Position numbers and translations under genes: made by a program. Below the pieces are notes generated by a model, which was given only the letters and a program-made list of their open reading frames with translations, did not search any database and had not been told where the DNA came from. This document shows, piece by piece, positions 18,807 through 54,729 of a DNA stretch of 64,000 nt. Position 1 is the stretch's first letter. The number at the start of each line of letters is the position of its first letter. The DNA is from Methanobacteriota archaeon (GTDB taxonomy: Archaea; Thermoplasmatota; E2; DHVEG-1), in assembly GCA_963769885.1 (NCBI GenBank), contig CAVYNH010000007.1, positions 96,001 to 160,000 on the forward strand, given 5' to 3'.

Positions 18807-18958
18807 AGCACTCCGCGGAATATGAATCCCCTCGTCTACTAGGTACCCTCAAAGTAAAGAATCACCAAGGTACTATTTGAGCATTATTCCCCCCAATAAA
18901 TATGGGTTGAAGGCGAATCTTTTTCAGGGAGAACAGGATTGAGGACCACCGTGGAACC

Positions 18959-22362: not shown

Positions 22363-22368
22363 GGCTGA

Positions 22369-27833: not shown

Positions 27834-28316
27834 ATGGGAGGAAATCGAGCCCGTCGTTTGTGGTCTTCAAACGAGGACGCGGTGTCCGAAGAGTACACCG
27901 CACTGCCTGCCCTCTGCACGGTCGTCATCGGCCTGGCGCTGTTTTTCCTTCTCCTCGCGCACGCATACACTGCGTCACAGGCCCAAAGCGAGACGATCCG
28001 CACCTACCACACGGCAGAGCTCCTCACGGAAAAACTCCTCGACCCTGCCAACGCCTTCATGCTGCCGGGGGGCATCCTCGACATTGCCTCCTTCGCTGAC
28101 GCAGCCGAGCCCCCCCGACTCCGGCAGGAATATTCCCCCTCAGGGTTCGATTTCCTCATCCGTCTCACCTACAACCACACCGCCATCACCCTCCCCGCCA
28201 ACGCCACCATCCCACAGACCTACATCGCCGCCTCACGCACCCTCCCCGTCGCCCTCAGCGACGCCCAGACCGTCCCCGGCACCCTCACCGTCCTCCTCTG
28301 GAGACGGCCCGCATGA
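27834..28316 (+). CDS. pilin-like protein (class III signal peptide-like N-terminus)
   Basis: NEDA/VSEEYTALPALCTVVIGLALFFLLL and C-terminal VPGTLTVLLW. Confidence 0.7.
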   Translation: MGGNRARRLWSSNEDAVSEEYTALPALCTVVIGLALFFLLLAHAYTASQAQSETIRTYHTAELLTEKLLDPANAFMLPGGILDIASFADAAEPPRLRQEYSPSGFDFLIRLTYNHTAITLPANATIPQTYIAASRTLPVALSDAQTVPGTLTVLLWRRPA

Positions 28317-32955: not shown

Positions 32956-34335
32956 TTATCGAAAAGAGGAGAGGAACGCGCGAAGGAAGGAAGAATCATT
33001 CCTGCGCAGTGTCGATGATAAAAGCCGAATGCCATATTGAGGCCGGAGATAATACGCAAACTGGGCAGCTTGACAGCGTTGCACCAATTGTTTCTCGGTG
33101 AGCAGCGAGAGGCCGCGGTTCGAATCCGCAATGACGATGTACTCGTCCTCCGAGATTTTCCCCTCCTTTCGAGCCTCATCCCACAGCTCGGATCCTACCA
33201 TATACCGCAAAGGAAGAAAAGAAACAGAGTCAAACGGTAGTTTTTTCGCGAACCGTAGCGTCTCACGCATCTGCCCCACGGTTTCAGCTGGTGCTCCGAA
33301 GATGAACGATCCAATAGTGATGAAGCCCATTTCATGGCTGAGCCGTATGGTCGCCTCGATTTGTTCGACGGTGGTCTGTTTATGGTAGAAATCAAGGATT
33401 TCCTGGCAGCCAGATTCGCAGCCGAACTGGACGGACACCACTCCGGCCCGCTTCATCTTCCGGTAAAGAACCGGGTCAGCGAGATCCACTCGTGCTGCAG
33501 TTACGATGAATTTAAGGTCAAGGTTCTCCTTTAATATTGCGTCGAACAGGGCATGGGCGCGGGGAAGCGGTGGCGGGAAGCAGTCGTCCATGATCGCGAC
33601 AATACGATACCCTGCTGTCTGGATGGCATGGAGCTCTCGTATGATGCTGGGAATGAAGTGGGGGCGGTAGCGGCGGGCGCTCAGCGACGTCCGTGAACAG
33701 AATCGACAGGAATAGGGGCAGCCTCGGCTGGTGATCAGGGAGGTGAGCTCCCCGGCTTTGATTCGAGGATCATAGAAACGTCCATAGGTGTAATGGCGCA
33801 CGAGGTCTCGTGCGGGAAACGGGAGGGTCTCAAGATCGTTGCAGGGACGAGCTGAAGGCCCGGCTTGGATGCCGTTTCGAGTTCGTGTCCATAGTCCGGG
33901 AATGGGGGCAGTTGTTGTTCCGAGGATGAGTCCTCTAAGTCTGCGGATGGGTTCTTCTCCGTCGCCTTGGACGCAGGACCGTGCCGGGGCCGCCGTCAGA
34001 GTTTTTTCGGGGAAGAGGGTGGCATGAGGCCCGCCGAGCACAATGGGCAAAGAGGGATCGATACTGTGGATGGTTTGTACTATTTCAGAAATATGAGAAA
34101 GAGCGGGGGTGAGCGTCGTCATGCCGACAAGATCTGCATTAGTAATGGATCGGGCGAGGGCTTCTGCGGTGTAGGGTTCCGCAGTGAAGTCGATGACGCG
34201 GACGGTGTCGCCTGCTTCTCGCAGAATGCTGGCGAGGTAGAGAAGGCCGAGGGGCGGGGCGAGTCCTCCGCTGGTGCTTTTGCCCTGATGGATGAAGAAG
34301 GGGATGAGGCGGGGATAGAGTAGGACGACGTTGAT
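32956..34335 (-). CDS. cobalamin-binding radical SAM protein (probable ATC start)
   Basis: 71 extra in-frame codons upstream of the track ATG give (M)NVVLLYP...APPLGLLYLASILREAGDTVRVIDF. Also GGPHAT and SRGCPYSCRFC. Confidence 0.9.
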   Translation of the reverse strand: MNVVLLYPRLIPFFIHQGKSTSGGLAPPLGLLYLASILREAGDTVRVIDFTAEPYTAEALARSITNADLVGMTTLTPALSHISEIVQTIHSIDPSLPIVLGGPHATLFPEKTLTAAPARSCVQGDGEEPIRRLRGLILGTTTAPIPGLWTRTRNGIQAGPSARPCNDLETLPFPARDLVRHYTYGRFYDPRIKAGELTSLITSRGCPYSCRFCSRTSLSARRYRPHFIPSIIRELHAIQTAGYRIVAIMDDCFPPPLPRAHALFDAILKENLDLKFIVTAARVDLADPVLYRKMKRAGVVSVQFGCESGCQEILDFYHKQTTVEQIEATIRLSHEMGFITIGSFIFGAPAETVGQMRETLRFAKKLPFDSVSFLPLRYMVGSELWDEARKEGKISEDEYIVIADSNRGLSLLTEKQLVQRCQAAQFAYYLRPQYGIRLLSSTLRRNDSSFLRAFLSSFR

Positions 34336-34404
34336 GGCTGAGCCGCTCCTTGTTGAAGGAGGATGCAGAAGGTGCTTGATATATTATTTGCGTAATGTTT
34401 TTTC

Positions 34405-37287: not shown

Positions 37288-37422
37288 GGTGTTGAAGCTC
37301 CCAGACAAATTCGGATTTGTATATTTTTTGACAATATTAATCTTCCTTTCTGGCGTAAAGCCAGGATTTTATAAAGCCGCTGCCGATTCAGGGTCTCATC
37401 GTGAGTCTCAGGGGAATCGTTG

Positions 37423-37965
37423 ATGGAATTTCAGCAGGTTGTCCAGGCCCGTCGAAGTGTACGGAGTTTTCAGAAGGCGCCGGTGGAGGAGGAGAAGCTG
37501 CAGTACGTGCTGGAGTGCGCCCGGCTCGCGCCGTCATGGCGGAATGGGCAGTGTTGGCGGTTCATCGTCGTCCGTGACCCAGAGATGAGGAAGAGGATTG
37601 CGACGACGAGTCCTTTGAATACCTGGTTGAAGACCGCGCCGGTCATCCTGGTGGCATGCGCGGATCCACGGGACAGCGGGCGCCGCCGCGGCATTGACTA
37701 TCTCGCCGTTGATGTCGGCATCGCCTTTGAGCATCTGATGCTCGCAGCCGCCGACGTCGGACTGGGGACCTGCTGGCTAGGCGCCTTTGACGAAAAAAGG
37801 ATCAAAGAGGCGTTGAAGATCTCGGAGCGGATTAAGGTCGTCGCCCTCTCGCCGCTCGGCTATCCTGCGCAACGGCCGTCGCTGCGCGCCCGACTTACGT
37901 CCGCGGTCGCCAGAAGCAAAAAACGCAAGCCGCTCGCCGATATCGTCCACTATGACCGTTGGTGA
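37423..37965 (+). CDS. nitroreductase family protein
   Basis: RRSVRSF, APSWRNGQCWRF and GLGTCWLG. Confidence 0.92.
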   Translation: MEFQQVVQARRSVRSFQKAPVEEEKLQYVLECARLAPSWRNGQCWRFIVVRDPEMRKRIATTSPLNTWLKTAPVILVACADPRDSGRRRGIDYLAVDVGIAFEHLMLAAADVGLGTCWLGAFDEKRIKEALKISERIKVVALSPLGYPAQRPSLRARLTSAVARSKKRKPLADIVHYDRW

Positions 37966-38011
37966 GGGGGACATGGTTTTAAATTCGGTCGTCTTCTTTC
38001 CTGCCCCGCCC

Positions 38012-38923
38012 ATGCCGTCCGCCGCATCGCAGCCTGACCAGCGTCCGTCGCCGATCATCTTGTGGCTGCCGATCGTGTTTTGGGCGCTCGCCTTCCCGTT
38101 CATCAAGATCGGCCTGCGTGAGCTGTCGCCGGTGAACCTGACGATCATGCGGTTGTTTTCCGTCTGCGCCATCTTCCTGCTCATCCGTGTGGTGGCCCCC
38201 AAGCGGTTCTCGCCGCTGCAAAAACGAGATTTCTTGTCATTGTTTCTCCTCGGGTTCTTCGGCGTTGTCGTCTATCATCTCGGGCTGAACTACGGGGAGA
38301 CGCTCATGTCCGCCTCGGCCGCCAGCCTCATCATCGCGACCATCCCCTTGTTCATGGTCGTTTTCTCCGTGTTGTTCCTCAAAGAAAAAATAACCAAGAG
38401 GATCATGATGGGAATCCTGATTTCCGCCCTCGGTGTCGTGATCATTGCTCTAGTCGGTACGAACAGCGACCCGCTCTCCGTCTCGTACCTCTTTGCCGCT
38501 ATCGCCGTCCTCCTCGCCGCGGTCGTCGGCGCGGTTTATACGGTCGCCGGTAAGAAGTTGCTGGAGCGGTACAACGGCTTCTCATTGACCATCTACGCTT
38601 TCCTCTTCGGATCCATCGGCCTGCTCCCCCTCCTCGCCGTCTCTCCCTCTCTCGCTACTGAAGTCGTTGCCATGAGTTGGGAGAGCTGGGCCGCGGTCCT
38701 CTTCCTCGCGGTCTTCCCCACGGTCATCGGATACATTTTCTGGTACGTGGCCCTGGAGAAAATCTCAGCCGCTAGGATAGGGGTGTACCTCTACTTCATC
38801 CCCGTGCTCTCCACGATCGCCTCCTATTTCATGTTCGATGAGGCAATCACCTGGCTGTTCATCGTCGGCACCGCCTTTGTCCTCGGCGGCCTCGTCATCC
38901 TGAACCGCCCCGAGACCTCGTGA
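38012..38923 (+). CDS. EamA/DMT family transporter
   Basis: About 10 TM, FWALAFPFIK and two EamA repeats. Confidence 0.88.
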   Translation: MPSAASQPDQRPSPIILWLPIVFWALAFPFIKIGLRELSPVNLTIMRLFSVCAIFLLIRVVAPKRFSPLQKRDFLSLFLLGFFGVVVYHLGLNYGETLMSASAASLIIATIPLFMVVFSVLFLKEKITKRIMMGILISALGVVIIALVGTNSDPLSVSYLFAAIAVLLAAVVGAVYTVAGKKLLERYNGFSLTIYAFLFGSIGLLPLLAVSPSLATEVVAMSWESWAAVLFLAVFPTVIGYIFWYVALEKISAARIGVYLYFIPVLSTIASYFMFDEAITWLFIVGTAFVLGGLVILNRPETS

Positions 38924-38960
38924 AAGCCTAATAAAGCCGCCCCTCGTTTCCAGCCCTGCC

Positions 38961-39659
38961 ATGATCACCGTCTCAAACCTCGTCAAGCGCTACGGCACCG
39001 TCATTGCCTTAAACCAGGTCTCCGCCTCCTTCCCGGACGGCCGCGTCATCGCCATCATGGGGGAAAACGGGGCGGGCAAAAGCACGCTACTGAAGGTCTG
39101 CGCCGGCATCCTCCCCTACGAACGAGGCGAGGTCTTCATCGACTCCTACTCGCTGCGCCAGAACCCTATCGCCGCCCGAAAGGCGCTTGGATACCTCCCG
39201 GAAATCCCCGAGCTCTATGAACGGATCACCGGCCGCGAGTTCCTCTTCTACATCGCCTCCCTGCGCGGAATGAAAAATGCGGAGAACGTCATCTTGGACC
39301 TTGCGAAATCACTTGGGATCGACGACGCCTTAGACTATGAGATGGGCGGCTACTCAAAGGGAATGAAGCAGAAGATCTCGCTGCTTAGCGCCCTCATGCA
39401 TGCCCCCCGCAACCTGCTCCTCGATGAGCCGATCTATGGGCTAGACCCGCTCGCCTCCCGCACGATGCTGCACTACATCCAGACCAGACAGGGCATGACC
39501 GTAATCGCCACCCACTCGGCGCAGCTCGTGGAATCAGTCGCAGATATGGTGTATTTCCTGATGAACGGCCGCGTCGTTCACTTCGAAGACACGGCCTCCC
39601 TCTTGACTCGGTTCAAATCCATCGAGGAATCCTATTTTCACTACAAGGCCACAAGCTAA
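38961..39659 (+). CDS. ABC transporter ATP-binding protein
   Basis: GENGAGKST, YSKGMKQK and LLLDEP. Confidence 0.92.
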   Translation: MITVSNLVKRYGTVIALNQVSASFPDGRVIAIMGENGAGKSTLLKVCAGILPYERGEVFIDSYSLRQNPIAARKALGYLPEIPELYERITGREFLFYIASLRGMKNAENVILDLAKSLGIDDALDYEMGGYSKGMKQKISLLSALMHAPRNLLLDEPIYGLDPLASRTMLHYIQTRQGMTVIATHSAQLVESVADMVYFLMNGRVVHFEDTASLLTRFKSIEESYFHYKATS

Positions 39660-39721
39660 ACCCATCGATAACTGCCTTGCCGCAAGGCTCACGGTAGGAG
39701 GCGTCTTCTGACGATTAGTTA

Positions 39722-42209
39722 TTATGGGTTAAGAAAAATAGGGGAAAAAGAGGACCATAGGGCCCTCAGTCTCGCCAGCAGTTGGGCGATGAAGTCATGC
39801 AGCCAAGTAATCCATCGCGGGATATACGGCATCTTCACCGCCAGGTAGGCCCAGTCGCTCTCTCCGGTGTTGTCCTTTGCCTTGGCTTTCACCTGGTAGT
39901 CCCCCTTCTTTGCCCAGGTGTGGTTCTTCACAACCTCGACCCCTGAGGTGTACGGCCCGAACCAGCTCGTGTTCGTCCCATCGCCCCAGTCAATGAAGTA
40001 GGAGACGTTGTCCCCATCATTATCTGTTGCGTTGACGGTATAGTTATAGGCGACATTTGGCTTCCCGCTCGATGGACCTTGCAAGTCCGGTGTCTCGGGG
40101 GGGTTATTCGTGGCAATCACCGCGGTGTACGGGAGGCTGTTCTGCGAGGTCACGACGATGTTGATTGGCTCCATGGACATTGAATTCACCGTGAGGACGG
40201 CAACCCCTGCGGCATCCGTCAGCCCTCTCACGTACATCCCGTTCGGCTGAGAGAGGCAGACCAAGGCGTTCGGCAGCGCACTCCCATTGCAGCCGACAGA
40301 AACGTTGACGGTGCAGGGCACGCCCGAGATCCCAGATGGATGGGTGACGCTCAGAGGCAGTGGAAACGCAGTCCGAATCTCCATCGAGGGATCTCCATGC
40401 ATGTTGAACTCCTCAAAGGTCGTCCGGGAAGTCGAAGCGCTGGGGGTCCAGGGATATGGAGCGCATCCACCTGGGACGATATATTTGTCATACATCCAAT
40501 ACTTACCGTAGTTCATGACTTGGGCGGTGCGCCAGACTGTCGTGTTGAATGGATTCGCGGATTGTCCATTGGGATAGTTCGGGTCGAAGTTCGGCCACAT
40601 GGCATCGTAGAGGCCGCAGCAGAACTCGTCGTTGTAGCCACTGTAACTCACTCGGGATGAGCAGAGTACTGCGGTGAATCCCCCGCTCGCCATCCGCAGG
40701 CCGTATTCGCCGAGGCACTCCCAGTTCCCCGACCCGCTATCGGTCTCGCCGTCGAACCATCCACTGTCACAATTCAGCGAGAACATGACTCCATACATCC
40801 GTCCATTCGTCAGCGCCTGTTCATCGACGGTGGTGAATTGGGGATACGACCATCCTGTGTACGAATATCCGTCGTTCTGGCTTGCGCCGTGGTCTCGATG
40901 GTTCGCAATGGCAACGCCGGTGTTCATGGCGGCGATGACGCCCGCGGTGGATCCGGGTGGGGTCGACCCAGAATACTGTCTGTTGCAAGAATAGCCCAAC
41001 GGGGTAAGGTAATTATAGATTCGTTCGGAGGTGTAGATGAAGTATCTCCCCGATTCCTGATAGGCTGCAAGGAGGATGTTATTGAACCAGTTCGTGCCCG
41101 TATAAGGCGTTTTTGAGTAATCCAGGATCTTGTTGACCGCGTTCGACAGTTCGGTCTCATTGTCCACGGAGATGCGGGCGCCATTGATGTCAGGGAGGTA
41201 ATCGGTGCCATCGATCGCCGTGTACCAGAGGTCGGTTCCCGTGCTGTACTGGTAACTCACAGGCACATGGTCCGCATCACCCACAATGAGGAGGAATGAC
41301 GGTGGAACTTCCCAGGTAGTATAGGCACTGATCATATAATTCCGGAGGTCGGTCGTCGTCGTCCCGATGTCTGACCATTTCATGACCTTCGTCTCGATCC
41401 CGGTCGCCTGCCGCCATTGTGCCAGTGGCTGGATCCCGTCGTAGTACCTGGTCAGCAGCGACGATTAGCAGGTCTGATCGGTTCCCCCGAGGCCCGTCAG
41501 TGACGCTTGGGTTGTTGAACACCGCTCGTTCAAGGGAGTTGTGGTTGAGGACGAACGCATCGAGGATGGGCTGGAAATAGACTGACCGCAGCCTCTCTGG
41601 GATGAAGACGTTCGTGCCTCCCACGAAACTGAGGCTTACTGATATCTCGGAGTAGGCTTTCACTGTCTGTTTCGCTGGGTTATAGGTGAATGGATATATC
41701 GTTACGAGGACCATCCGGCATCCACGCATCGTGAATGAGGGGCTAACATCGGCCACCGATTGGGGATAATATTGGTCAAGGGCATAGAAGCTCTCGTTCA
41801 TGGTAAACGGTGGCTGGGCATAGATATCAGACTCCGGCTTCGGCGGCTGAGCGGGATAGATGGTGTGTCCTGTCAGGATTGTTGGTTGAGTCGTGGTGTA
41901 GCTGAACATCACCTCGGCACCTTGTGGGACAGCGACGTAATAGCTCACAGTCGGCAGCTGGGGCTTCCCACAATCAGCCAACTGGCCGCTGTCTTGGATA
42001 CTGATGCATTCGAAATTGCTCGATTCCGCGGCCTCAAAATGATAGCCTTGGACCGAGACCTGAAAGTTGACGGCCTGGCAGTCGGCCCTTGAAACGCTCA
42101 CAAGGACGTCCTGAGTCGCCGCCGTTTGTTTTCCCGGGATACCATTGGACAAGGCCAATGGGCTTACCAGCAAGATTGCCACTAAACAGAAAAGCTTCCG
42201 TTTCAACAT
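39722..42209 (-). CDS. C25 (gingipain-family) cysteine peptidase with propeptide and PKD domain; +1 frameshift at about 41448
   Basis: Signal peptide, propeptide G.P.LP, LLIVGD, TDLWY, NHRDHG (His), SLNCDSG (Cys), GDPSM, then PKD DWGDG. Removing one base joins IVAADQ to YYDGIQPLAQWRQATG. Confidence 0.88.
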
Positions 42210-42518
42210 GTTCCTCCTACAGGATATGACTTCAATTGTATTTACTATCGGCAGGAGCTTTATCTATTTTTTTATAGAGTTTATATTATTAATCGACATT
42301 TTCTCCTTAAATTACCCTCTCGATAATTTGAGGTCAATAGAGGCGAGGATAACAGGTTTTTACACAAGGGCGCCTGGAGCCGGGGAGTCGTGCCCGAGCC
42401 GTGCCTGCAAGAAACCTTATAAAAACACGCCGGCGTTATGAGCAGTGAATGTCGATTTTCGATTACGACGACGCCTTCGGCCACGTCATGTTCTTGATCA
42501 ACTTCACTTGTGTCCCCT

Positions 42519-43895
42519 ATGTTTGAGACCACGCGGCTCCTGCTTTCGAATCAATATCGCGGCTTCCGAGACAAACTGCAGTCTTCTCCAATCTTGTACT
42601 TGTTTTTCTCGCTGATGATGGTTTTTTCTCTTGCCATGTTTGCTTTGCTGACAACCACAATCCTTGCCACTCATCTCCCGCTCACGGTCGCTGACGTGTT
42701 CTTCTTCGTCTTCTTCGTGTTTCTCATGAAGACCGGGTCTGATGTGCATCGGTCCTTCATCGCCGCGCCTCAGGTGGCGTACGCGATGTCGACGCCCACG
42801 AGCCATCGTCGGACGCTTGGCGGCATCATCCTTGAGATCCTCCTCGTAAACATGGGGATCTGGTTCTGCTTTTCCCTGCTGTTCCTCGCCTTCCTTCAGC
42901 TTTACCAGGTGCCGATGTGGTACCCGCTGGAATACCTTGAATTCTCCTGCGGCGTGCTCACCGCGACTCTTCTCGGCGCGGTACTGTCATTGCATTTTTT
43001 CTCCCCGTTCCCAATCCGGCTGTTGCCCACCGCGATTCTGCTTATGTTCTATGGGATTGTGCAGAATCCAGTCTATGTCCTAGTGACATTGCCGCTTGCC
43101 GGTGTGCAAGGCTGGTGGGCGGTGTCGCATGCCGAGTCGTCATACCGTTATGTGAAACGGAAGAAACGGTCCGCGGATGCGAAAAATGCGCGGATGCGTG
43201 GCGTCCTTTCCTCCCTGTTTTACCGGGAGGTCACGACGCTGTGGCGAGAACGCCTCTTCGTCAGCTTCATTTTCATGTCCATTATGACGGCGATTGGAAC
43301 CGGGTTCCTGTATCTGCATGGGGTAGAGCTGTTCCTCCCTCCTGCCCTCCAGCGGATCATGGGTGATTTTCTCCCCTCGCTGTTCATGTTCCTGGGGGTG
43401 TACGTCGTCGTCCTATATACGGCGGTATTCCCGGCGTTGAATCTGTTCTTGACGGAGGAGAGGACGCTGTGGGTTCTGCAGACGATGCCCGTGACTGCGG
43501 ATCAGGTCGTTCTCGGGAAGACCTCTGCGTTATTTCTCTGCTTCCTCACGGCGATCCCGTACCTTGCGATCATCCCATTGTTCGTGAATCTGGCGAATCT
43601 GCCGTTCCTGGCATGGTTCATGGTATTCTCATTCTTAGCGTCGGTTATGGTCGCGGTCCCGTTCGGAGTCAAATACATTGGTAAGAAATCGGACATCCTG
43701 CTCCTTTATAGTCTTTCGCTGATTTTGTTTGTAGTCCTCAGTCTTGTGGCGTCGTGGGTGAATGCCCTGCTCCAGTTTCACGACGTCACCATTGTCTGGC
43801 TTCTAGGATTACTCTTGCTGTGGGTGTGCTGTGGGGTATTCATTTCGTTAAAACTTTCGACGCGGCTGTTACGCTCATCCACCGGAATTCGCTAG
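42519..43895 (+). CDS. multi-pass membrane protein, probable ABC exporter permease
   Basis: About 12 TM, REVTTLWRE and EERTLWVLQTMPV..VVLGK typical of ABC-2-like permeases. Confidence 0.7.
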   Translation: MFETTRLLLSNQYRGFRDKLQSSPILYLFFSLMMVFSLAMFALLTTTILATHLPLTVADVFFFVFFVFLMKTGSDVHRSFIAAPQVAYAMSTPTSHRRTLGGIILEILLVNMGIWFCFSLLFLAFLQLYQVPMWYPLEYLEFSCGVLTATLLGAVLSLHFFSPFPIRLLPTAILLMFYGIVQNPVYVLVTLPLAGVQGWWAVSHAESSYRYVKRKKRSADAKNARMRGVLSSLFYREVTTLWRERLFVSFIFMSIMTAIGTGFLYLHGVELFLPPALQRIMGDFLPSLFMFLGVYVVVLYTAVFPALNLFLTEERTLWVLQTMPVTADQVVLGKTSALFLCFLTAIPYLAIIPLFVNLANLPFLAWFMVFSFLASVMVAVPFGVKYIGKKSDILLLYSLSLILFVVLSLVASWVNALLQFHDVTIVWLLGLLLLWVCCGVFISLKLSTRLLRSSTGIR

Positions 43896-44323
43896 AAGTC
43901 GAGGAGGTTGATGCCGATGTCTGAGTCGAAGCTCCGTTCGATGGTGGCGTCGATGACGTCGATGATGATCTCGCAGGTGATAGAAACGGTCGCCGCGATG
44001 ACATGGCCTCCGAAGGATGCCTGGTCTGCGTTGCAGACGTTCGCATGGAGATGGATGTAGGGCTCGCCGTTCTTCGTCGTGATGTCCCCAAGTAGGGGGG
44101 CGATCTCGAAGTCGCCGATGAGTTCGCGGGAGAGATACTGCTTCGTGTTCGGGTTGAACAGCCCAAGCGTGATTTTGTTGACGGTGCCGATACCTTGGAC
44201 GGCGCCTGCCTTGACCTGGTGTTCTTTGCAGACGGCTTTGATGCTGCTGATGAGGTCTTCTCCCTTGTCGATGCGGACGATGATTTTATCCTTGAACCGA
44301 CGGTGCTTCATGTAGTATGCCAA
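43892..44323 (-). CDS. PPC/DUF296 domain protein
   Basis: RIDKGEDL, GIG, HLH and FGGHV. Confidence 0.88.
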   Translation of the reverse strand: MAYYMKHRRFKDKIIVRIDKGEDLISSIKAVCKEHQVKAGAVQGIGTVNKITLGLFNPNTKQYLSRELIGDFEIAPLLGDITTKNGEPYIHLHANVCNADQASFGGHVIAATVSITCEIIIDVIDATIERSFDSDIGINLLDF

Positions 44324-44419
44324 GTCAGTGACCTTTAAAAAAATTTGCTTTTCATTCTAGGGAGAAGGCTGACCAAATGTTTTAATACAAACCCTTGATT
44401 CTGTTGTCACGACTACCCT

Positions 44420-44492
44420 GCCGTCCTAGCTCAGTTGGTAGAGCACTCGGCTGTTAACCGAGCGGTCGCCGGTCCGAGTCCGGCGGACGGCG
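44420..44492 (+). tRNA. tRNA-Asn(GTT)
   Basis: GCCGTCC/GGACGGC acceptor and CTCGG-CTGTTAA-CCGAG anticodon arm. T-loop reads TCCGAGT. Confidence 0.95.
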
Positions 44493-45062
44493 CTCATTTT
44501 TCCTTTATTTTAATAGATCCAGCATTTCAGGAACATTCCACCAAGGAGATTCTACTTCTTTTGTGTAATAGAAAGCTTGGGGAGCCCATAAGGAGAATCT
44601 TTGGGCTTTGTCGGGAAAAGATTCATTAGGAAACTGGACTCCCCATTGCTCTCAATCGACAATCGCCTTATTAACTCTTCCACGAGAATAGTCAGAATCA
44701 TCCGCCGTTCATCTGTGTTTTGTTGTCTGAAATTCGGATTGTCAAGTAGGAACCCTACGTCTCATCGAACTCTATATGATCTGGGGAAGAGACGAGCCTT
44801 GAGAAGCCGGGGGGGGCAGAACCGGTGGTATTGATTTCTTTTTTTCCGCTAGTTCAATCGAAAATAAGCATGAGAAGTGGGATGGGGGAATTAAATCGAA
44901 TGTCTGGGAGGTTTATTTGGGAGGTAACCAAAAAAACCGATCTTTTTAATTCCCCCAGCCAAGAATTATCTTTCCGGATTAATATAGTTTGTGTTCAAGC
45001 GGCGGGTGAGGCTCCGGGTGTCGAACAACGTATTTATATAATAGAGGGGATTACCCGGCCCC

Positions 45063-45398
45063 ATGCCTGAGGAACAGTCTGCGGAACCCAAGAAGAGCCA
45101 GGGGAGATACACGATCCAGGACGCCATGCAGGTGGCCGATGATGTCTTGAACCTCAGCAAAGAGAAGAAGTACTCGATTGGTGCGTTTGTGCATGGGCAG
45201 ATCTTCGCCTTGGAGTTCACGGCAGTCGCGTATGGGATTCCGACCCAGCAGATAGCGGAGATCAAGCGGACCTGCCGCAAGTACATCAATGATTTGATCC
45301 AGCTTCAAGCACAAGCAAAAACAGAGCCTCACGCCCCTGAGGAAGCGGAGCAAAAAACGAAGCAGAACCAAGAGCAGAAAGTCGAACAAAAGGCGTAA
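45063..45398 (+). CDS. hypothetical protein
   Basis: TTTATATA box and GAGGGG upstream, with plausible codon usage. Confidence 0.7.
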   Translation: MPEEQSAEPKKSQGRYTIQDAMQVADDVLNLSKEKKYSIGAFVHGQIFALEFTAVAYGIPTQQIAEIKRTCRKYINDLIQLQAQAKTEPHAPEEAEQKTKQNQEQKVEQKA

Positions 45399-45585
45399 CT
45401 CCCCTCGGAATACCGTCAGGGCCTCTCCATTTTTCAATTCATGTTTTCGGCAGCCTGGACTCAGTACATATCTACCAATAGTGGTACCTGCATCATTACA
45501 TATCCATAAATTATATAAAAACTGAGGCACTCTTAGTTTGCTCAAGGATGGTATTCGGATGGGATGCGGAGAGTGCAAGACCAAA

Positions 45586-46458
45586 GTGAAACTTGACTAT
45601 ATCCAAGATTTTGAGATGATGTTTGAACGGATGAAGGTCGATCGTCCGCGGGAGGCCGCAGCGTACTACACGATCCTCATCGTTGACTGCCCCAAGGAGT
45701 TCTCGGATTATCTCAAGATCGCGGAAGAACTTACCAATATCACGCGCCGGCCGCTGGAGACCGGGCGCAACTCCCTGCTTCGCTACGGGCTGATCGCCGA
45801 GGTCCTGTTCACGGCGAACGCGGATGAGGACTTCGGGCGGGAGAGCTATCTGCCGGTGAACCCGCGGGTCATCTGGGAGGACATCAAGGAGAACCTCAAA
45901 GGCGTCGTCGCCCCGGACACCTATACGGCCATGCAGAACCGGCTGACGGAGTACACCTCGTCGTACAGCGAGCATTTCAAGACGTACGGCATCAAGATCA
46001 AGCGGGAGGGCAACGTCACACTGCGGTACAGCGGGAAATGGATTCTGTACAACATCCTGAACAACTGCCTGGACAAGAAGAACACGCTGCGGATGCAGAT
46101 CGGCGGGGAGCGGTTCTTCGAGGAGCCCTTCGTCCGGTACTTCAAGAAGTTCCTGGAGCTGAACTCCAAGGTCGAGTTGCTCATCGACACCGAGGCGAAC
46201 ATCGACATCGCCAAGTCGCTGAAGCAGGCGTACGGGGACAGCCTCGACATTCGGTATTTCTCCGAAAACACCTCTGGGACGATGCGCAACTACGTGTTCG
46301 GCAAGGAGCTCGCCGTCAACGGCATCAAGATCCTGTCGGAGTCGGATCCCAAGGAACCGATCTATGTCGGGACCGCGTACGTCAACCTCGAGGACATCGA
46401 GGTGCTGAACGCGAAGTTCGAAAACCTCTGGGGTCTGGCGAAGAAGCTGCCCGCCTAA
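45586..46458 (+). CDS. putative TrmB-like transcriptional regulator
   Basis: N-terminal wHTH-like region (EAAAYYTIL...IAEEL...L.RYGLI...Y.PVNP) and PLD-like C-terminus ending FENLW..A. Start uncertain. Confidence 0.5.
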   Translation: MKLDYIQDFEMMFERMKVDRPREAAAYYTILIVDCPKEFSDYLKIAEELTNITRRPLETGRNSLLRYGLIAEVLFTANADEDFGRESYLPVNPRVIWEDIKENLKGVVAPDTYTAMQNRLTEYTSSYSEHFKTYGIKIKREGNVTLRYSGKWILYNILNNCLDKKNTLRMQIGGERFFEEPFVRYFKKFLELNSKVELLIDTEANIDIAKSLKQAYGDSLDIRYFSENTSGTMRNYVFGKELAVNGIKILSESDPKEPIYVGTAYVNLEDIEVLNAKFENLWGLAKKLPA

Positions 46459-46554
46459 ACAACCCTTCCCCCTTTTTTTAACAATCTTTTTATTATTCTC
46501 TGGACTGAGCCGTGAAAAGGAAAAAAAGAAAAAAGGGTGATGGGGTGGTCTGGC

Positions 46555-46980
46555 TTACTTCGACTGGATGAGTTCCTTGGCCTGGGTCGTGTCCCAAAGG
46601 GCACGGATGATGATGAAGAGGGCCGCGGGGGCGACGAAGATAGCGAGGTACTTCGTGATGTTGCTGAAGACTGGGGCCAGATCCTTGAAGTAGTAGATGC
46701 TCGTGGTCGTGGGGATGACCGCAAGGGCGACGAGGATCAGCGAGGCGATGAGGAAGGTCGGGACCCGCTCCTGGGTGATGGCTCCGAGGGCGAAGAACGA
46801 AAACACGCCGACGAAGAAGCCGAGGACCGCCAGCAGGATGCTCGCGGGGTCGACCCAGGTTGAGACGTTGTAGTTCAGGGGTGTTCCGAGACCGAAGACG
46901 AGGCCGACGACGATTGCGACGACGATTCCGATCAGGAAGAGCCAGCTGCCTAATTTCTTTACCATGTTCTCCATTTCCAC
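46555..46980 (-). CDS. small 4-TM membrane protein
   Basis: Four hydrophobic helices, GSWLFLIG...FVAPAA, and AGGAG upstream. Confidence 0.75.
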   Translation of the reverse strand: MEMENMVKKLGSWLFLIGIVVAIVVGLVFGLGTPLNYNVSTWVDPASILLAVLGFFVGVFSFFALGAITQERVPTFLIASLILVALAVIPTTTSIYYFKDLAPVFSNITKYLAIFVAPAALFIIIRALWDTTQAKELIQSK

Positions 46981-47201
46981 CGTCTCCTATAAATTTTTAT
47001 GTGAGTGCAGTAATGGAAGAATAGGCTTATTCTATATAAGAATTGTGTTTTTTTCGAGTTTTGTATTGGGGCCGACTGTTCCCAACAGGAGGCGTTTTCA
47101 CACTGCTTTTTTGGCACATTGCCGCCATACGCTTAAATACAAAGAATGCTAGAACCTATCACGCTAAAGAGTAGCATATGAGGTAAAAAAGGAGAGAGAC
47201 C

Positions 47202-47441
47202 ATGACAAAAGTAAACATCATGTATGACCTAGAACCCGACTACTTCCCCAACGAACTCCAACCATACCCAACCCTGACCATGCACGGGCCCAAGAACAAG
47301 TCCGTCCAGGTTTCAGACCGCGTCTTCGACGTCATGCTCAGCGAAGGCCTCCTGCGCAAGACCACCGATGGCTACGTCTTCGTCGGACGCGCCGAGGACC
47401 TCCCCAACAAACCCAAGAAGAAAAAACGCCACGCCTATTAA
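47202..47441 (+). CDS. small hypothetical protein with basic tail
   Basis: AAGGAGAG SD, 79 aa. Confidence 0.7.
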   Translation: MTKVNIMYDLEPDYFPNELQPYPTLTMHGPKNKSVQVSDRVFDVMLSEGLLRKTTDGYVFVGRAEDLPNKPKKKKRHAY

Positions 47442-47587
47442 AATACCGTCTGACCCGGTGCGAGAGGGCCCGCCTCTTCTCCGCACATCACCTCTTCTCC
47501 AAGTCCCCTGCGGCCCTCTCCTCTTCCTCCTCCTTTTCTCCAGAGGAAAACGCTTAAACAGCCCCACCTCTTACCATCATCACACCC

Positions 47588-48397
47588 ATGATCCATACCT
47601 CTGGAGCCCGCTACCATAAACGCACCGACGAAGAAGTCGACGACTTCGTCAAAAAACTCGAGCTCCAGGCCCAAGAAACCGCCGAGGAACGCCTTCCTCT
47701 CTACCTCGCCGCCGACATCCCCCACGCCCACCTCATCCTCGACATCGGCTGCGGCTCCGGCTTCGTCACCCGCGACATTGCCCGCCTCACCATCGGCACC
47801 GTCATCGCCGTCGACGGTTCACACCAACTCCTCACCATCGCCCGCACCACCCTCCACGACCACCCCAACACCCACCTCTGCCTCGCCGACGCCCACGCCC
47901 TCCCCTTCCCCACCGGGACCTTCGACGCCGTCACCTGCAACCTCCTCCTCATGTGGGTCGACAACCCCCAACGCGCCGTCCACGAAATGACCCGCATCAC
48001 CAAACCCGGCGGCACGGTCCTGGCCACCCTCGAACCAGACTACGGCGGCAAACTCCACTGGCCCGAAAACCGCCGCATCGACCCCTACTTCGCCGGCGAA
48101 GCCATCCGTAAAAAAGGTGGCGACCCCCACATCGGCAGAAAACTGCGCGCCCTCTTCGCCACCGCCGGACTCCACACCACCATCGGCATCGGCAACAGCC
48201 GCATCTGGACCTGCGACGAAGACAAACAATACTACCTCCACTCCCGCGACTTCTACATCAAAGTCCTCAAAGACGCCGGCCTCACCCCCCAAGAAATCGA
48301 TCACTGGGAATACGACTACCTCAAATCCCTCGACGACGGCACCCAACTCAACTTCTTCCCACAATTCTACGCTATCGGCAAAAAACCGAAGCCTTAA
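47588..48397 (+). CDS. class I SAM-dependent methyltransferase
   Basis: LDIGCGSG, ADAHALPFPTGTFD, KPGG and EPDY. Confidence 0.9.
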   Translation: MIHTSGARYHKRTDEEVDDFVKKLELQAQETAEERLPLYLAADIPHAHLILDIGCGSGFVTRDIARLTIGTVIAVDGSHQLLTIARTTLHDHPNTHLCLADAHALPFPTGTFDAVTCNLLLMWVDNPQRAVHEMTRITKPGGTVLATLEPDYGGKLHWPENRRIDPYFAGEAIRKKGGDPHIGRKLRALFATAGLHTTIGIGNSRIWTCDEDKQYYLHSRDFYIKVLKDAGLTPQEIDHWEYDYLKSLDDGTQLNFFPQFYAIGKKPKP

Positions 48398-48435
48398 GAG
48401 TCCCCGCGAAATTCAACCCACACAAAGGTCACACC

Positions 48436-49293
48436 ATGACCGCACAAATCTTCAACGGCAGGGCACTCGCCCACAACCTCACCATCGCCATCGCCGAACA
48501 CATCAACCGACTCACCAAACAATACAAAACACCCCCGAGCATCACCACGATCATCATCGGCGACAACCCCGCCTCCCTCCTCTACCTCAAACGCCGCGAC
48601 GCCGCCTGCTCCCAAGTCGGCATCCACTCCACCCATCTCCGCTTCCCCGGCACCACCACAGAACACGAGGTCATCGAAGCAATCCAGCGACTCAACGACA
48701 ACCCGAGGACCCACGGCATCCTCATCCAATACCCCCTCCCCCAGCAGCTTCACCCATTGCGTCTTATGAGCACGGTTGACCCCCGCAAGGACGTCGAAGG
48801 CCTCAACCCCAGCAACCTCGGCCGTACGCTCAGTGGCGACGAGGATTTAGTCCCCTGCACACCCCAGGCTGTCGTCTACATCCTCACCCATGAAGCCATC
48901 ACACTCAAAGGAGCGGACTCAGTGATTATCAACCATAGTAATATCGTCGGTAAACCCCTCGCAGCACTCCTCATTAATCGAGACGCGACCGTCTCTGTCT
49001 GTCATGTCTTCACGAAGGACCTACAGCGATACTCCTCTGCCGCTGACATCCTTATTTCGGGCGCTGGTGTCGTCGGACTCATTACCGACGCCCATGTCAA
49101 GCCTGGCGCCGCAGTGGTCGATGTCGGCATCACTCCGACTCCAGGGGGCGTCCGCGGGGACGTAGTTTATGACAATGTTGCGAAAAAAGCGGGATTCATC
49201 ACCCCGGTTCCTGGGGGCGTCGGCCCCGTCACCACCGCGATGGCCCTCGCCAACATGGTCAAGACCTTTACCTACACCATAACCAAGACGTGA
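48436..49293 (+). CDS. folD: methylene-THF dehydrogenase/cyclohydrolase
   Basis: GILIQYPLP, KDVEG, PCTP, SNIVGKP and TPVPGGVGP. Confidence 0.94.
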   Translation: MTAQIFNGRALAHNLTIAIAEHINRLTKQYKTPPSITTIIIGDNPASLLYLKRRDAACSQVGIHSTHLRFPGTTTEHEVIEAIQRLNDNPRTHGILIQYPLPQQLHPLRLMSTVDPRKDVEGLNPSNLGRTLSGDEDLVPCTPQAVVYILTHEAITLKGADSVIINHSNIVGKPLAALLINRDATVSVCHVFTKDLQRYSSAADILISGAGVVGLITDAHVKPGAAVVDVGITPTPGGVRGDVVYDNVAKKAGFITPVPGGVGPVTTAMALANMVKTFTYTITKT

Positions 49294-49308
49294 GTTCACC
49301 GGATTTTT

Positions 49309-50079
49309 TTAAGCTTCACTTCGGTTGAACAGGTAGCTGCCCACAGCCCACAGTACGATACACATCAAGATGATTATTCCAAGATCAAAATATGGTGAAA
49401 ACAAATTGTTAGCTCCGGTCAAGGCACCTCGGGTCCCATCGACCATGTAAAATAACGGGTTGAACAAGGTAATCGTCTGCAACCATCCCGGCCAGTCGTG
49501 ACTAATGGGGAAGAACGCCGACGAGAGGAAGAACAGCGGTAAGAGAATGAGGTTCGAGATCACCTGGAACCCTTCGTAATCCTTGATGACGGAGGCGGTG
49601 ATTAACCCCATGCCAACGGCAGCAAAGGTCAACAGGACCATGATGAGAACCGTTAACGCAAGGTTCGCTAGCCCTGGGACGACGGCGCCCATAAACAGGG
49701 CTATTCCTAGGATGACGAATCCTTGGACCAACGCGAGCGTCGCCCCGCCGAATGTTCGCCCGAGAATGATCGAAAACCGGCTCACGGGCGCAACGAGGAC
49801 TTCCTGCAAGAACCCGAACTGCCGATCCCAGAGCACGGAAACACCAGTAAAGATCGAGGACATCATAATCGCCATCGCGATGATCCCCGGCGCCAGGAAA
49901 TTGAGAAAATTGGTCTCGATACTCGGGAAGACAGCACTCCCAAGCCCAAGACCGAGGATGACAAGGAGGAAGAGGGGCTGCACGATGGTGCCGATGATTC
50001 GACTTGGCGCTCGGATGAACCGCTTCATCTGCCGCAGCCACAACACGTAGATGGCTTGCAACTCCCGATAGATATTCAC
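49309..50079 (-). CDS. ABC-2 type permease (DrrB-like)
   Basis: FLAPGII, DRQFGFLQEVLVAP and NPLFYMVD. Confidence 0.9.
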   Translation of the reverse strand: MNIYRELQAIYVLWLRQMKRFIRAPSRIIGTIVQPLFLLVILGLGLGSAVFPSIETNFLNFLAPGIIAMAIMMSSIFTGVSVLWDRQFGFLQEVLVAPVSRFSIILGRTFGGATLALVQGFVILGIALFMGAVVPGLANLALTVLIMVLLTFAAVGMGLITASVIKDYEGFQVISNLILLPLFFLSSAFFPISHDWPGWLQTITLFNPLFYMVDGTRGALTGANNLFSPYFDLGIIILMCIVLWAVGSYLFNRSEA

Positions 50080-51065
50080 GGGTTCCCCCCTGCATTCTTC
50101 TGGTTGATCTTCAATTCGTCCTCAGGTTCTTGGTCTCGAATGCTCCTGCCAGTGTAATAGAGGAACACGTCATCCAACGTGGGTTTTCGAATCGTAATGG
50201 AACGAACAGCGATCTGTGCCTTACGGGCAAGCTCGATGATCTCGGGGATTTTTTCATCCCCGCGGCTGGCCCCAAAGGTCAATTTCTCGTGATCGATTTT
50301 TGGATTCTGCACCCAAGGCTCTTTCGCGAGCCGTGCTTGAAGCCCGGGGAGATCAGAGCAGGTCAGCGTGATGACATCGCCGCCCACTGAAGCCTTCAGG
50401 GCATCGACGGTATCTAAGATGAGAATTTTACCATGGTCGATGATGCCGATGCGGTCGCAGAGGAAATCCGCCTCGTCCATGTAATGGGTCGTCAGGAAGA
50501 TTGTCGTGCGTTCCTCTTTGTTCATCTTCCGGACATAGTCCCAGATCGCTCGTCGTGTTTGAGCATCCAGGCCGAGGGTCGGCTCATCAAGAAAGAGGAT
50601 GGTCGGCGAGTGCATCAACCCGCGGGCGATCTCCAACCGACGTTTCATCCCGCCAGAGTAGTTTTTCACGAGCACGTCCTTTTTTTCGATGAGATCGACG
50701 AGAGTGAGCACCTCGTGAATCCTGCGGATTCGGTTCTCTTTTTGCAGCCCGTAGATGCGGGCATGGAAATCGAGGTTCTCCTCCCCGGTCAGTTGTGTCT
50801 CAAGGGCGGGTTCTTGGAAGACGACGCCGATAATCTGTCGAACCGCGTCTCGTTGGCGGCGGACGTCGAAACCGCAGATCAGCGCCTTCCCAGATGTAGG
50901 GCGTTGGAGGGTCGTCAACATCTTTATCGTAGTGGTCTTCCCGGCGCCGTTTGGCCCTAAAAAGCCGAAGATTTCACCTTCATGGACCGAAAACGAAATA
51001 CGGTTGACGGCGGTGAATCCGTTGAAGGACTTGGTGAGGTCTGTCGTCGTGATGATGTCGGGGAT
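50076..51065 (-). CDS. ABC transporter ATP-binding protein (DrrA-like; probable ATC start)
   Basis: 48 in-frame codons upstream of the track ATG carry Walker A (GFLGPNGAGKTT). Also YSGGMKRR, LDEPT and PTLDDVF. Confidence 0.92.
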   Translation of the reverse strand: MPDIITTTDLTKSFNGFTAVNRISFSVHEGEIFGFLGPNGAGKTTTIKMLTTLQRPTSGKALICGFDVRRQRDAVRQIIGVVFQEPALETQLTGEENLDFHARIYGLQKENRIRRIHEVLTLVDLIEKKDVLVKNYSGGMKRRLEIARGLMHSPTILFLDEPTLGLDAQTRRAIWDYVRKMNKEERTTIFLTTHYMDEADFLCDRIGIIDHGKILILDTVDALKASVGGDVITLTCSDLPGLQARLAKEPWVQNPKIDHEKLTFGASRGDEKIPEIIELARKAQIAVRSITIRKPTLDDVFLYYTGRSIRDQEPEDELKINQKNAGGNP

Positions 51066-51118
51066 GGCTGGCGCCTCCGATTGTCTGGAGGGAGAGAATG
51101 TCTACCCCATTAAAAAGC

Positions 51119-51818
51119 TTATTTTCTTGAGACGATGGCGAAGTAGTTATCGGCTGAGTGGCGGGAGGCGAGTCTGACGGCGCGAATCGAGGACACCTTG
51201 AGGTCGGCTGCGGCGAGGTCGTCGGCGAACTCCCGGCGACTGTAGAGATGGTAGAACCGAGGCACGGCGAGACGATGCTGACGCCACATGATGTCGATGT
51301 CGCCGAACTCACCTTCTGGCATGATGCGGAGTCGTTCTTTGAGAAAATGTGTGCGGTAGGTGTCTTGCCAGCGTGCCCAGACGCTGATGAGGCTAACTCC
51401 TGAAGGCGTCAGTACCTCGGCGGACTTCCCTGAGGGCTTCTTGGCGGTTTTTCCGAGTCCGGATGTTGTGCAACGTTGCTATGAATGGTACAACATCCGC
51501 AATCTTGTCGCAGCAGGGGAGGCGTTCAAGGTCAGCTTGTATCAACGAGATATTATCAATGTTCTGTGTTGTGATTTTCCTCAGGACGATTCTTAGGAGG
51601 TTTCGTGAGAAATCCACGCCGATGGCTTGGTGCGCATAGGCTGCTGCTGGTAGCAGATGACGGCCGTTGCCGCATCCAAGGTCTAGTATGGTGTCTGCGG
51701 TCTTTTGGTTCCTAAGGAACTCAAGGACGATAGGCCAGGGGCGTCGGCGGGTGTGATCGAAGCTTTCCGCGATTATGTCCCAAGACGCCATCGCGTTGTC
51801 TCGCCACATCCCAGCCAC
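51119..51818 (-). CDS. Trm9/ALKBH8-like SAM methyltransferase; +1 frameshift at about 51416
   Basis: IAESFDHTRRRPWP, LDLGCGNGR and IATLHNI. Removing one base gives EVRRVLTPSGVSLISVW...RFYHLY. Confidence 0.82.
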
Positions 51819-51822
51819 CAGG

Positions 51823-53461
51823 TTAGGTGAGGAGTTCGTCGATGTTCACTTCGAAGGCGATGCAGGGGTGCTCCAGGCTGAATGCTTGGATGGTTCGTGG
51901 GTGTAGTTCGCCAAATGTTCCGATAGCCTTGTTCTGTGTTTGGATGGTGGCGCAGCGTCCGTCGATGAAGGTGGGGTCATGGCCTTCGGTAAATGAGAAG
52001 AGGTGGCCGGAGCCGCGGCCGATGGCCTCGATGTAGGCCTTGCATTCGGTGAAGTTGGCCTTGGCGTCGACTTTGATGCCGGCGAGGTGCCAGCGGTTTT
52101 TCGCGTTTCCATCCACGACGACACCGACTTCGAAAATCTGCTGCGGCAGGTGATGATGGCGGTTTTCACGTAGCAGTTTCAGCATAGAAGGGAGCAGGCT
52201 GATGCGCATGCCGTTGAATTCTTCACCGATAGGGTTTGCGATCTCCACCCATTTCTCTGGTTTTTTGCCCATTTTCTTGAATTCATCTTGGTTGTTGGAG
52301 ATACAGAACGTCGTGACTTCGTGGAATCCAAGGCCGATGAGGAGAAGTCGGAGCGAGTTGTTGGTCTGGGTTGAGGATAAGAGGCGTCCGAAGGTCATAG
52401 CTTTGGGGAAGTCCATGGTGAATTGGTCGAAGCCGTAGCCGACGGCGACGTCCTCGATGAGGTCGACTTCGTGGAGGATGTCTGATCGCCAGGGCGCGAT
52501 TTCGACGAGGAGCGAGTCCTCTCCAAGTATGATAACGTTGTGGCCCATTTTCCGGAGGCAGTCGCTGATGCCCTTGTTGGTGAAATTGGTACCGAGGAGC
52601 TGGTTTACATGGGAAATCTTCAGCTCGTGTTTGTAAGTAGAGAGGTCGGGGGAGATGATTTCTTTGCCGTCGTCCAGTACCCGTAGTCGTGTGGATTTCA
52701 CCGCCGCGTTCGGCGAGGGCGGTGGTAACGATGTTGAGGGCGATGTTGATGGCTTTACGGTCGGTGCCGGTGACGTCGATGAAGAGGTTCTTGGTCTGGG
52801 GGGTGACTTCGGTGAGGGCGCCGTTGATGATCGGGGGGAAGGAGAGGACCTCATTTTTTGAGTCGAGGATAATGGGGTACTTGGTGTATCCTTTGAGGAG
52901 GTGGGCGTAAGCTTGTCCTTTTTCGTGGCGCTGAAGGATTTCGCTGAGGGTCATGGGCTCGGTTTTGGTGAGGGGGATAAAAGTGAGGTCGTCGGGGAGG
53001 ATAGCGGTGTAGGTGAACGGGGGGGTGACAGCGTCTGCATTGTGGACGCCGATGGCGACTTTTTTGCGGTCCCGTCCGAGGCCGACGTGGAGTTTTTCTT
53101 GGAGGCTCATGAGGGATTCAATGAGGGCGTCGGACATGGTGACATGGGTGACGAGGGCGGTGGTGACGTAGGGGCGGACGGTTTTTACGGAAGGGTCGAC
53201 GGTGAGGCGGATGCGGGAGGGGTCGAGGTGGTAGGTTTGGAGCCCGGGGTTGAAGCCGAGGTAGGCGCGGCAGGCTCTGGCAATGCCTTCGACGGAGGTG
53301 AGGTCGGGGCGGTTGGGGAAGAATTCGATGTTGATTTGGTCGCCGGTGATGGTGCCAAGGTCGCCGCCGATCATAGGGAGTTTTTCGATGAGGGTGGAGA
53401 GGGGGATTTCATGGCCTAGGAGGGTGATGAAGTCTTGGTAGTCGAAGGTGATAACTGGCAT
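51823..53461 (-). CDS. pheT: phenylalanyl-tRNA synthetase beta subunit; +1 frameshift at about 52681
   Basis: MPVI, PNRPDL, QEKLH...R.RKKVAIG.H, SFPPIIN, RSDILHEVDLIEDVAVGYG and GELHP. Length is 3n+1. Confidence 0.93.
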
Positions 53462-53577
53462 AGTTGGGTGCTGGGAATGGTGTGGAGGTATATTTGAGTT
53501 TGCCGTTATACTGATATCCAAATTTCTTCTCATAAAGATTTTAAATATTGCTGGTCATTCTCTATGTGTCGTGGCGA

Positions 53578-54729
53578 ATGGCGAAGATCCTTATTCTGAA
53601 CGTGGATCGGGATGATGATTTTGGGCGGAAGGCTCAGGTGCAGAGCCCGATTATTGGATTGCAGAGTAATCTGGATGCGGCGATGCGGCTGGGACGCAGT
53701 GACCCTGAGGATTCCGATTTGAACGCGGTGTTTTTTGCGATTCAGGTGTTTGACTCGATGAAGGCGGAGGGGGCGGACGTCGAGGTCGTGACGTTGTGTG
53801 GGGATATCAATATCGGGGTGAAGTCTGATCAGCGGCTGGCGGAGCAGCTGGACCGGGTGATTGCGGAGACGCATGCGGAGGAGGCGGTGTTGGTCAGCGA
53901 TGGGGCGGAGGATGAGTACATCCTGCCATTGATCCAGTCACGGTTGAAGATCACAGCGGTGCAGCGGGTCAGCGTCAAACAGAGTCGGCAGATCGAGGAT
54001 ACCTATTATCGGATCGTGAAGCTGCTGGATGAGGACAAGGTCAAGAAGCAGTTTTTCCTACCGATCGCGTTGATTTTAATGGTCTGGGCGGTGTTCGCGA
54101 TCTTTGGGATGGCGGCCAGTGGGTTCGGCGCGATCTTGTTTACGCTTGGGATTTATCTCTTGATCCGGACGTTTAATTCGGAGAAGAAGCTGGCGGCGCT
54201 GTGGCATGAGTTCCGCCAGGGGCTGTTGATTGGGCGGCCGTCGTTTTATACGACGATCCTGGCGATTGTGATTATCGTCGTGACCGTGTTTTATGCGTAT
54301 AACAAGACGCCGTTCAACATGGAGATTAATTTGATCATCCCGGTGTTGGCGTTTTTGAATTCGATTACGTGGGGGCTGGTGGCTGCGGGGCTGCTGTTTG
54401 CGTTCGGGCGGGTGACGGACTTGTTCATCCGGGAGAAGAAGATCCTGTGGACGTATTGGATCGTGCCGTTTTCGCTGTTCTCGTATGGGTTTGTGGCCTC
54501 GGCGGTGTTCGGGACGTTGGAGAGTTCGATTCGTGATTATTTCAACAGCAACGAGTTCTCGATCGAGCCGTTCCTGGGCGTGACGTTCGTGGGGTATGTC
54601 GCGGCGGGCGTGATCATCGCGTTCATCGGGGCGATCAGCTACCATTACATCAAGGAGCAGCACGCGATCGACGAGTTCGAGCTGGACATCGACGAGCAGA
54701 TGTCGAAGGCGTCGAATCAGGCCAAGTAG
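53578..54729 (+). CDS. DUF373 family membrane protein
   Basis: LNVDRDDD.GRK, DPEDSDLN, VSDGAEDE, VKQS, and multi-TM C-terminus. Confidence 0.88.
   Translation: MAKILILNVDRDDDFGRKAQVQSPIIGLQSNLDAAMRLGRSDPEDSDLNAVFFAIQVFDSMKAEGADVEVVTLCGDINIGVKSDQRLAEQLDRVIAETHAEEAVLVSDGAEDEYILPLIQSRLKITAVQRVSVKQSRQIEDTYYRIVKLLDEDKVKKQFFLPIALILMVWAVFAIFGMAASGFGAILFTLGIYLLIRTFNSEKKLAALWHEFRQGLLIGRPSFYTTILAIVIIVVTVFYAYNKTPFNMEINLIIPVLAFLNSITWGLVAAGLLFAFGRVTDLFIREKKILWTYWIVPFSLFSYGFVASAVFGTLESSIRDYFNSNEFSIEPFLGVTFVGYVAAGVIIAFIGAISYHYIKEQHAIDEFELDIDEQMSKASNQAK

Follow-up and report, generated by a model that had tools for sequence, protein, structure and literature searches.

A probable AUC start codon in a DrrA-type ABC transporter ATPase gene and recurrent Shine-Dalgarno-led near-cognate starts in an MBG-D-like lineage of Thermoplasmatota

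In genome G000, the ATPase gene of a DrrA-type ABC-2 transporter most likely starts at an ATC codon. The gene (50076-51065, minus strand; 329 codons from ATC to TGA) lies in the 64,000-nt stretch of DNA that we analyzed (hereafter, the window; G000:C7:96001-160000 in a genome of 2.09 Mb in 7 contigs), and the proposed start codon is the ATC at 51065-51063. We consider it probable that this gene encodes a functional ATPase, that its ancestral start codon was replaced by CCC and that its translation is initiated at AUC as part of a habit that involves approximately 1% of genes in this lineage. The host is an uncultured Thermoplasmatota archaeon of an MBG-D-like order. The ancestral TTG, ATG or GTG directly before Asp-Ile-Ile was changed to CCC in this genus, and the ATY codon immediately before it is the sole near-cognate codon that remains. 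Translation most likely now begins at this ATY, which is AUC here and AUU in the sister species. In the mechanism that we propose, GGAGG, which is located 8 nt upstream, would position the 30S subunit. The initiator Met-tRNA (anticodon CAU) would pair with AUC despite the mismatch at the third base, and we infer that AUC is decoded in this way.

The stop-to-stop frame of the ATPase gene runs from 51101 to 50076 on the minus strand and is closed upstream by an in-frame TAG (51102-51104). The TAG is followed by 12 codons and then by ATC CCC GAC ATC ATC, from which the frame continues to the Walker A motif GPNGAGKT (50934-50957). The first in-frame canonical start codon, ATG (50919-50921), is located 3′ of Walker A. 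We searched all three frames between the TAG and Walker A for ATG, GTG and TTG, and found none. Because there is no canonical codon in any frame before Walker A, no single indel could bring back a normal start. From the TAG to the conserved N-terminal region, the ATC at 51065-51063 is the sole near-cognate codon, and a Shine-Dalgarno (SD) sequence, GGAGG (51074-51078), ends 8 nt 5′ of it. This GGAGG is complementary to CCUCC at the 3′ end of 16S rRNA (...CACCUCCU; the 3′ end in this genome was also read as ...GGAUCACCUCCU, which pairs with GGAGG). Farther upstream, TTTTTAAT (51109-51116, minus strand; 43 nt before the ATC), which was read from the sequence, is a possible archaeal TATA box of this gene; a transcript start would be predicted approximately 20 nt before the ATC. 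The sequence-only reading had described a TAG, a GGAGG, an ATC and a Walker A motif before the first canonical start, and our re-reading confirmed this arrangement. Gene callers select the ATG at 50921, which gives a 281-amino-acid product without Walker A, and the same product is on record in public gene calls. Walker A is part of the product only if translation begins 5′ of this ATG.

The translation from ATC matches TIGR01188 (drrA) at 368.9 bits (whole-protein score; cut-off, 312.45) and PF00005 at 118 bits, and also matches PF13732. Position 1 of the TIGR01188 model aligns 11 residues after the ATC. GPNGAGKT, the signature YSGGMKRR and the Walker B motif ILFLDEPT are all intact. The gene of an ABC-2 permease partner (49309-50079, minus strand; PF01061, 125 bits, match 49312-50079) follows directly, and its GTG start overlaps the stop codon of the ATPase gene (GTGA). 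Thus, the gene resembles those of DrrA/NodI-type ABC-2 exporter ATPases (TIGR01188) in its full-length match, in all motifs, in the DrrA C-terminal domain and in the adjacent permease. The start codon alone differs: orthologs of this family use TTG, ATG or GTG. In 11 relatives and approximately 45 MBG-D-like Thermoplasmatota MAGs, one of these three codons is located directly before Asp/Asn-Ile-Ile, which is one codon 3′ of the ATC in G000. Among named records, Thermoplasmatales archaeon SG8-52-3, UBA33 and B82_G9 are the nearest. The codon preceding the start in the relatives is often ATA or ATT, and several relatives read ATH-TTG. Among the relatives compared, CCC in place of the ancestral start is found only in this genus: G000 reads ATC-CCC-GAC-ATC-ATC and a sister species of the same genus (G001) reads ATT-CCC-GAT-ATC-ATA. 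The upstream GAGGCG is kept in both species.

Another non-standard start is conceivable for the ATPase gene. Two more ATC codons (51056-51051) occur within four codons, and an in-frame ATG is present two codons before the TAG, so that translation might begin at ATG-GGG-TAG (51110-51102) with read-through of the TAG. However, the later ATC codons are 17-20 nt from the SD sequence, outside the 4-11 nt observed for confident starts in this genome. Furthermore, ATG-GGG-TAG is neither preceded by an SD sequence nor conserved in the sister species. Stop-to-stop frames are normal elsewhere in the genome, with no sign of TAG as a sense codon. We therefore regard these starts as quite unlikely and prefer the ATC at 51065. 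It should be mentioned that initiation at AUC is reportedly very weak in reporter assays in E. coli, which counts against the AUC reading.

Two other genes in the window have a similar arrangement on the minus strand, and the three SD-preceded ATC codons named by the sequence-only reading all proved real when the letters were read again. In these two genes, as in the ATPase gene, ATC is the best candidate start. In a saccharopine-dehydrogenase-like gene (case 1), ATC CCC ATC (23521-23529) is located 5 nt downstream of TAA-GGAG, and the ATC at either 23529 or 23523 may be the start. The counterpart in G008, a genome of the sister genus, has ATG AAA TTT before the same LVLGAG. In a B12-binding radical SAM gene (case 2), GGAG is located 10 nt upstream of an ATC (34333-34335), and the stop-to-stop ORF has its first canonical start at codon 87, which is 71 codons 3′ of this ATC. 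For two weaker candidates, a near-cognate start need not be invoked. The proposed ATT start of the archaellin gene at 18821 can be replaced by an in-frame TTG (18806-18804) with GGAG 4 nt upstream. For the "ferredoxin" gene, a CTG at 790 had been suggested; the ATG of this ORF (587-589) aligns with the ATG of the sister species. Parts of the window have unusual base composition. In 2-kb windows, GC skew reaches -0.63 and +0.57 locally, in the regions 28000-32000 and 34000-38000, and AT skew is opposite. The coding strands of these regions are C- and A-rich and G-poor, and favour C-ending codons.

Three of approximately 55 genes in the window had been taken as a sign of genome-wide relaxation. 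If start selection were relaxed wholesale, at least 5% of genes would start at AUH. The frequency was estimated by comparison of genomes. Whole-genome start mapping against G001 was abandoned, since conserved upstream DNA and off-frame translations inflate the counts. Because G001 is too close for start mapping, we used G008, which belongs to the same family and has a GC content of 34%; 1.6 Mb was compared with G000. The starts of raw BLAST HSPs against G008 were discarded as well, because antisense shadow ORFs and the reading of conserved SD and TATA elements as protein inflated the counts. Overlap filtering and a "trusted block" rule took their place. After removal of shadow ORFs, 825 ortholog pairs were obtained.

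Among 275 confident starts in G000, there were 216 ATG, 38 GTG and 21 TTG codons, and approximately 58% of these starts had an SD-like motif; the spacings were 4-11 nt. In pairs with a usable reference start, a canonical start 5′ of the conserved block was missing from 13 of 510 G000 genes; roughly half of these 13 were artefacts in which conserved SD or TATA sequence was read as protein. The credible cases include the saccharopine-dehydrogenase-like gene (ATC), C3:23179 (ATC) and an esterase gene (CTG aligned to ATG). In a glutaredoxin-like gene, whose entire ORF is devoid of canonical starts, GGAGGT is followed by 6 nt and ATT; the G008 gene has GGAGGT, 6 nt and ATG. Two further credible cases could instead be indel artefacts. 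In G008, 18 of 532 genes had no canonical start, and the codon aligned to the G000 start in these genes was ATA in five (uvrB among them), ATC in one and CTG in one. We also observed that ATA follows an SD sequence in G008 exactly where G000 has GTG, ATG or TTG (uvrB and others; for example, G8:1107542-1109494, 617191-618096 and 656366-657304).

An alignment-free test was performed in the pre-start zones of G000, in which ATC, ATT, ATA, CTG and ACG were counted as near-cognates. A well-spaced SD sequence preceded near-cognates at 45 of 1827 sites and other codons at 211 of 19104 sites (OR 2.3, p = 4.5e-6), an excess of approximately 25 SD-plus-near-cognate sites in 1143 ORFs. In homology-supported genes, an SD sequence precedes ATC in 8 of 114 (G000) and ATA in 8 of 148 (G008), and the background is 1.4-1.7%. 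For ATC alone, the SD-only test was weak (p = 0.04). In general, ATC was not enriched at the column aligned to the nearest canonical start of the relative, for which the choice of reference start is noisy. Judged from these comparisons, the predicted SD-led near-cognate starts are a real, conserved and lineage-wide habit in roughly 1-1.5% of genes. The AUH codon that appears to be used follows base composition, being ATC in the C3-rich G000 and ATA in the sister genus with 34% GC. A coupling of near-cognate starts to loss of G, as had been suggested, is plausible.

Genes outside the window show the same habit. In rpoH (G000:C6:635438-635775), GGAGG is followed by 8 nt and ATC or ATA in all 12 sequences compared (G000, G001, G008 and nine metagenome contigs), and never by a canonical codon; the codon is ATC in 10 sequences and ATA in 2. 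In-frame stop codons are present one to three codons upstream in 6 of the 12. An out-of-frame ATG occurs within the spacer in 11 of the 12, which could suggest a frameshift. However, this ATG is absent from one contig, which counters the suggestion. A second local cluster was observed at C6:568886-570805, where the consecutive genes rps17e, ribB and ribC all have no canonical start. In rps17e, there is none in 85 codons. The start of rps17e is most likely CTG and that of ribC is most likely ACG, as read from the sequence; the ACG of ribC is located after AGGAGGT and 8 nt. The putative ATC start of pdxT is located one codon past the stop codon of pdxS, and ACG and CTG are candidate starts at C6:265055 and C6:265737. 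The N-termini predicted from near-cognate starts are (M)PDIITTTDLTK (ABC ATPase), (M)PIDILVLGAGMMGR and (M)AATPSK (RpoH). These observations support the idea that this lineage repeatedly uses SD-preceded near-cognate codons as putative starts, including in essential genes (rpoH and rps17e). The proposal that the lineage tolerates SD-led AUH starts is therefore upheld by the genome-wide SD enrichment and by rpoH. In contrast, homology-anchored mapping gives approximately 1-1.5%, not the 5% expected from the rate in the window. The three window genes and the second three-gene cluster are in line with wholesale relaxation, but the 13 of 510 genes, of which about half are artefacts, the dominance of ATG, GTG and TTG among confident starts and the small excess of SD-preceded near-cognates make it very improbable. 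Because roughly 1% of genes are affected, we consider the three of 55 in the window to be a local cluster.

Since gene callers give exactly the 281-amino-acid product and this genus no longer has the canonical start, the ATPase gene might be decaying or be translated only from the ATG at 50921. However, an ABC ATPase needs Walker A to bind ATP. Over 315 codons, with the Walker A part included, dN/dS between G000 and G001 is 0.09. Of the 48 residues encoded 5′ of the ATG, 40 are identical; GPNGAGKT is intact and neither species has a frameshift or stop codon in the gene. Moreover, the SD sequence and a TATA-like box are found at the same distances in both species; in G001, the TATA-like box is TTATAATA, 41 nt before its ATT. 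Decay or translation of a Walker A-less product alone is thus highly improbable.

It is extremely unlikely that the true codon is ATG and that ATC is an assembly or base-calling error of long reads: the window does carry 1-nt indels, but the errors found are indels and not G-to-C or other substitutions, a Logan contig from ERR10755944 agrees with the window at the ATC and its flanks, this codon is ATT in the sister species and CATG is not depleted. The artefact check called for by the sequence-only reading thus came out in favour of the ATC. Within the adjacent methyltransferase gene, which is intact in the contig of this run (229 amino acids), one indel and two substitutions separate the contig from the window. 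Because it differs nearby, this contig is an independent assembly. The ATC of case 1 is likewise identical in an independent Logan contig. For case 2, we found no exact record of the truncated radical SAM product. A methylation miscall, in which CATG is read as CATC, was ruled out, since the observed/expected ratio of CATG is 0.87. Relative to short-read contigs, 1-nt indels are present in the window at 51415, 52680, 41447 and 46528, and there are others within 34200-53600. A strain with approximately 98% identity, sequenced at 24-28x depth, has one base fewer at 51415 and at 52680. The former indel splits the methyltransferase gene (51119-51818) and the latter splits pheT (51823-53533). A run with 100% identity does not have the base at 41447. 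These indels are probably consensus errors of the long-read assembly, and the candidate near-cognate genes C6:516889 and C4:179038 could be artefacts of this type. On the minus strand at 21774-22368, two overlapping ORFs resemble one gene split by a frameshift, and the 3′ piece runs for 111 codons without a canonical start.

aIF1 and the initiator tRNA had been named as factors to be checked. aIF1 is present in G000 and is ordinary by Pfam; Kae1 and Sua5 are present too. The Kae1/TsaD gene, for t6A synthesis, was seen at the end of the window (63219-64000). In contrast to aIF1, the initiator tRNA has an order-specific change, C33. The gene of initiator tRNAMet (G000:C6:132516-132591, region to 132640; anticodon CAU) has its first four bases, AGCG, split from the rest by an intron of approximately 39 nt. 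Once the intron is removed, the acceptor stem is AGCGGGG:CCCCGCU, and relatives without the intron read AGCGGGG directly. An intron of approximately 36-40 nt after AGCG (positions 4/5) is observed in a subset of the genera of this order. The tRNA has A1:U72, three G:C pairs next to the anticodon loop (GGG/CCC) and CAU, as expected of an initiator. However, the anticodon arm is GGG-CCCAUAA-CCC and has C33 instead of U33. When the genes were read directly, C33 was found throughout the order (26 of 26 genomes) and U33 in other orders of the class (4 of 4 genomes). In a scan of 301 genomes of the phylum for initiator anticodon arms, 33 of the order's 39 genomes had the C33 arm, versus 5 of 261 outside the order; the U33 arm was detected in 1 of 39 versus approximately 222 of 261.

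C33 is found in the initiator tRNAs of human, mouse, nematode, fly and Arabidopsis, and U33 in those of the bacteria and yeasts examined; C33 prevents bacterial and yeast enzymes from forming t6A37 (PMC8887486). As in the multicellular eukaryotes, C replaces a near-universal U33 in the anticodon loop. Here, however, the change is found in one archaeal order and is apparently independent. In yeast, loss of t6A doubles non-AUG initiation (PMC4717488). The yeast case and the present one are alike in that a change in the anticodon loop of the initiator tRNA coincides with more near-cognate initiation. They differ in that the yeast case is a mutant with initiation at UUG, ACG and GUG upstream of genes, whereas natural primary starts are involved here. 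C33 may contribute to the use of near-cognate starts; its link to start codons is only a correlation and is based on a single evolutionary event. We tentatively suggest a wider scheme, which at present is rather doubtful: the change from U33 to C33 in this order, directly or via blocked t6A37, would lower the stringency of start selection, SD-led AUH, CUG and ACG codons would thereby serve as the sole starts of approximately 1% of genes (rpoH and a gene for a ribosomal protein among them), and drift in base composition would pick the codon.

In a review of initiation in archaea, no start codons other than AUG, GUG and UUG are listed (PMC7531240), and we found no literature on AUH starts or C33 in this lineage. 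The near-cognates of NCBI table 11 (AUU, AUC, AUA and CUG; for example, AUU of E. coli infC and pcnB) resemble the present cases: the codon has a single mismatch, the SD spacing is normal, and standard gene callers miss the start and shorten the protein. Unlike those cases, the starts described here are archaeal and recur in approximately 1% of genes, including rpoH and rps17e. The AUU of infC is explained by autoregulation of the IF3 type, of which the present cases show no sign.

Gene callers that are limited to ATG, GTG and TTG shorten or mis-start such genes. For example, Walker A of the ABC ATPase and a Rossmann strand of the dehydrogenase are lost in this way. Because near-cognates are missed by callers, annotations of this abundant sediment and wetland lineage would be systematically wrong for approximately 1 gene in 100. 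A clade in which essential genes keep conserved AUH starts, and which also carries an order-specific C33 initiator tRNA, may be a natural system for the study of start fidelity of the archaeal/eukaryotic type.
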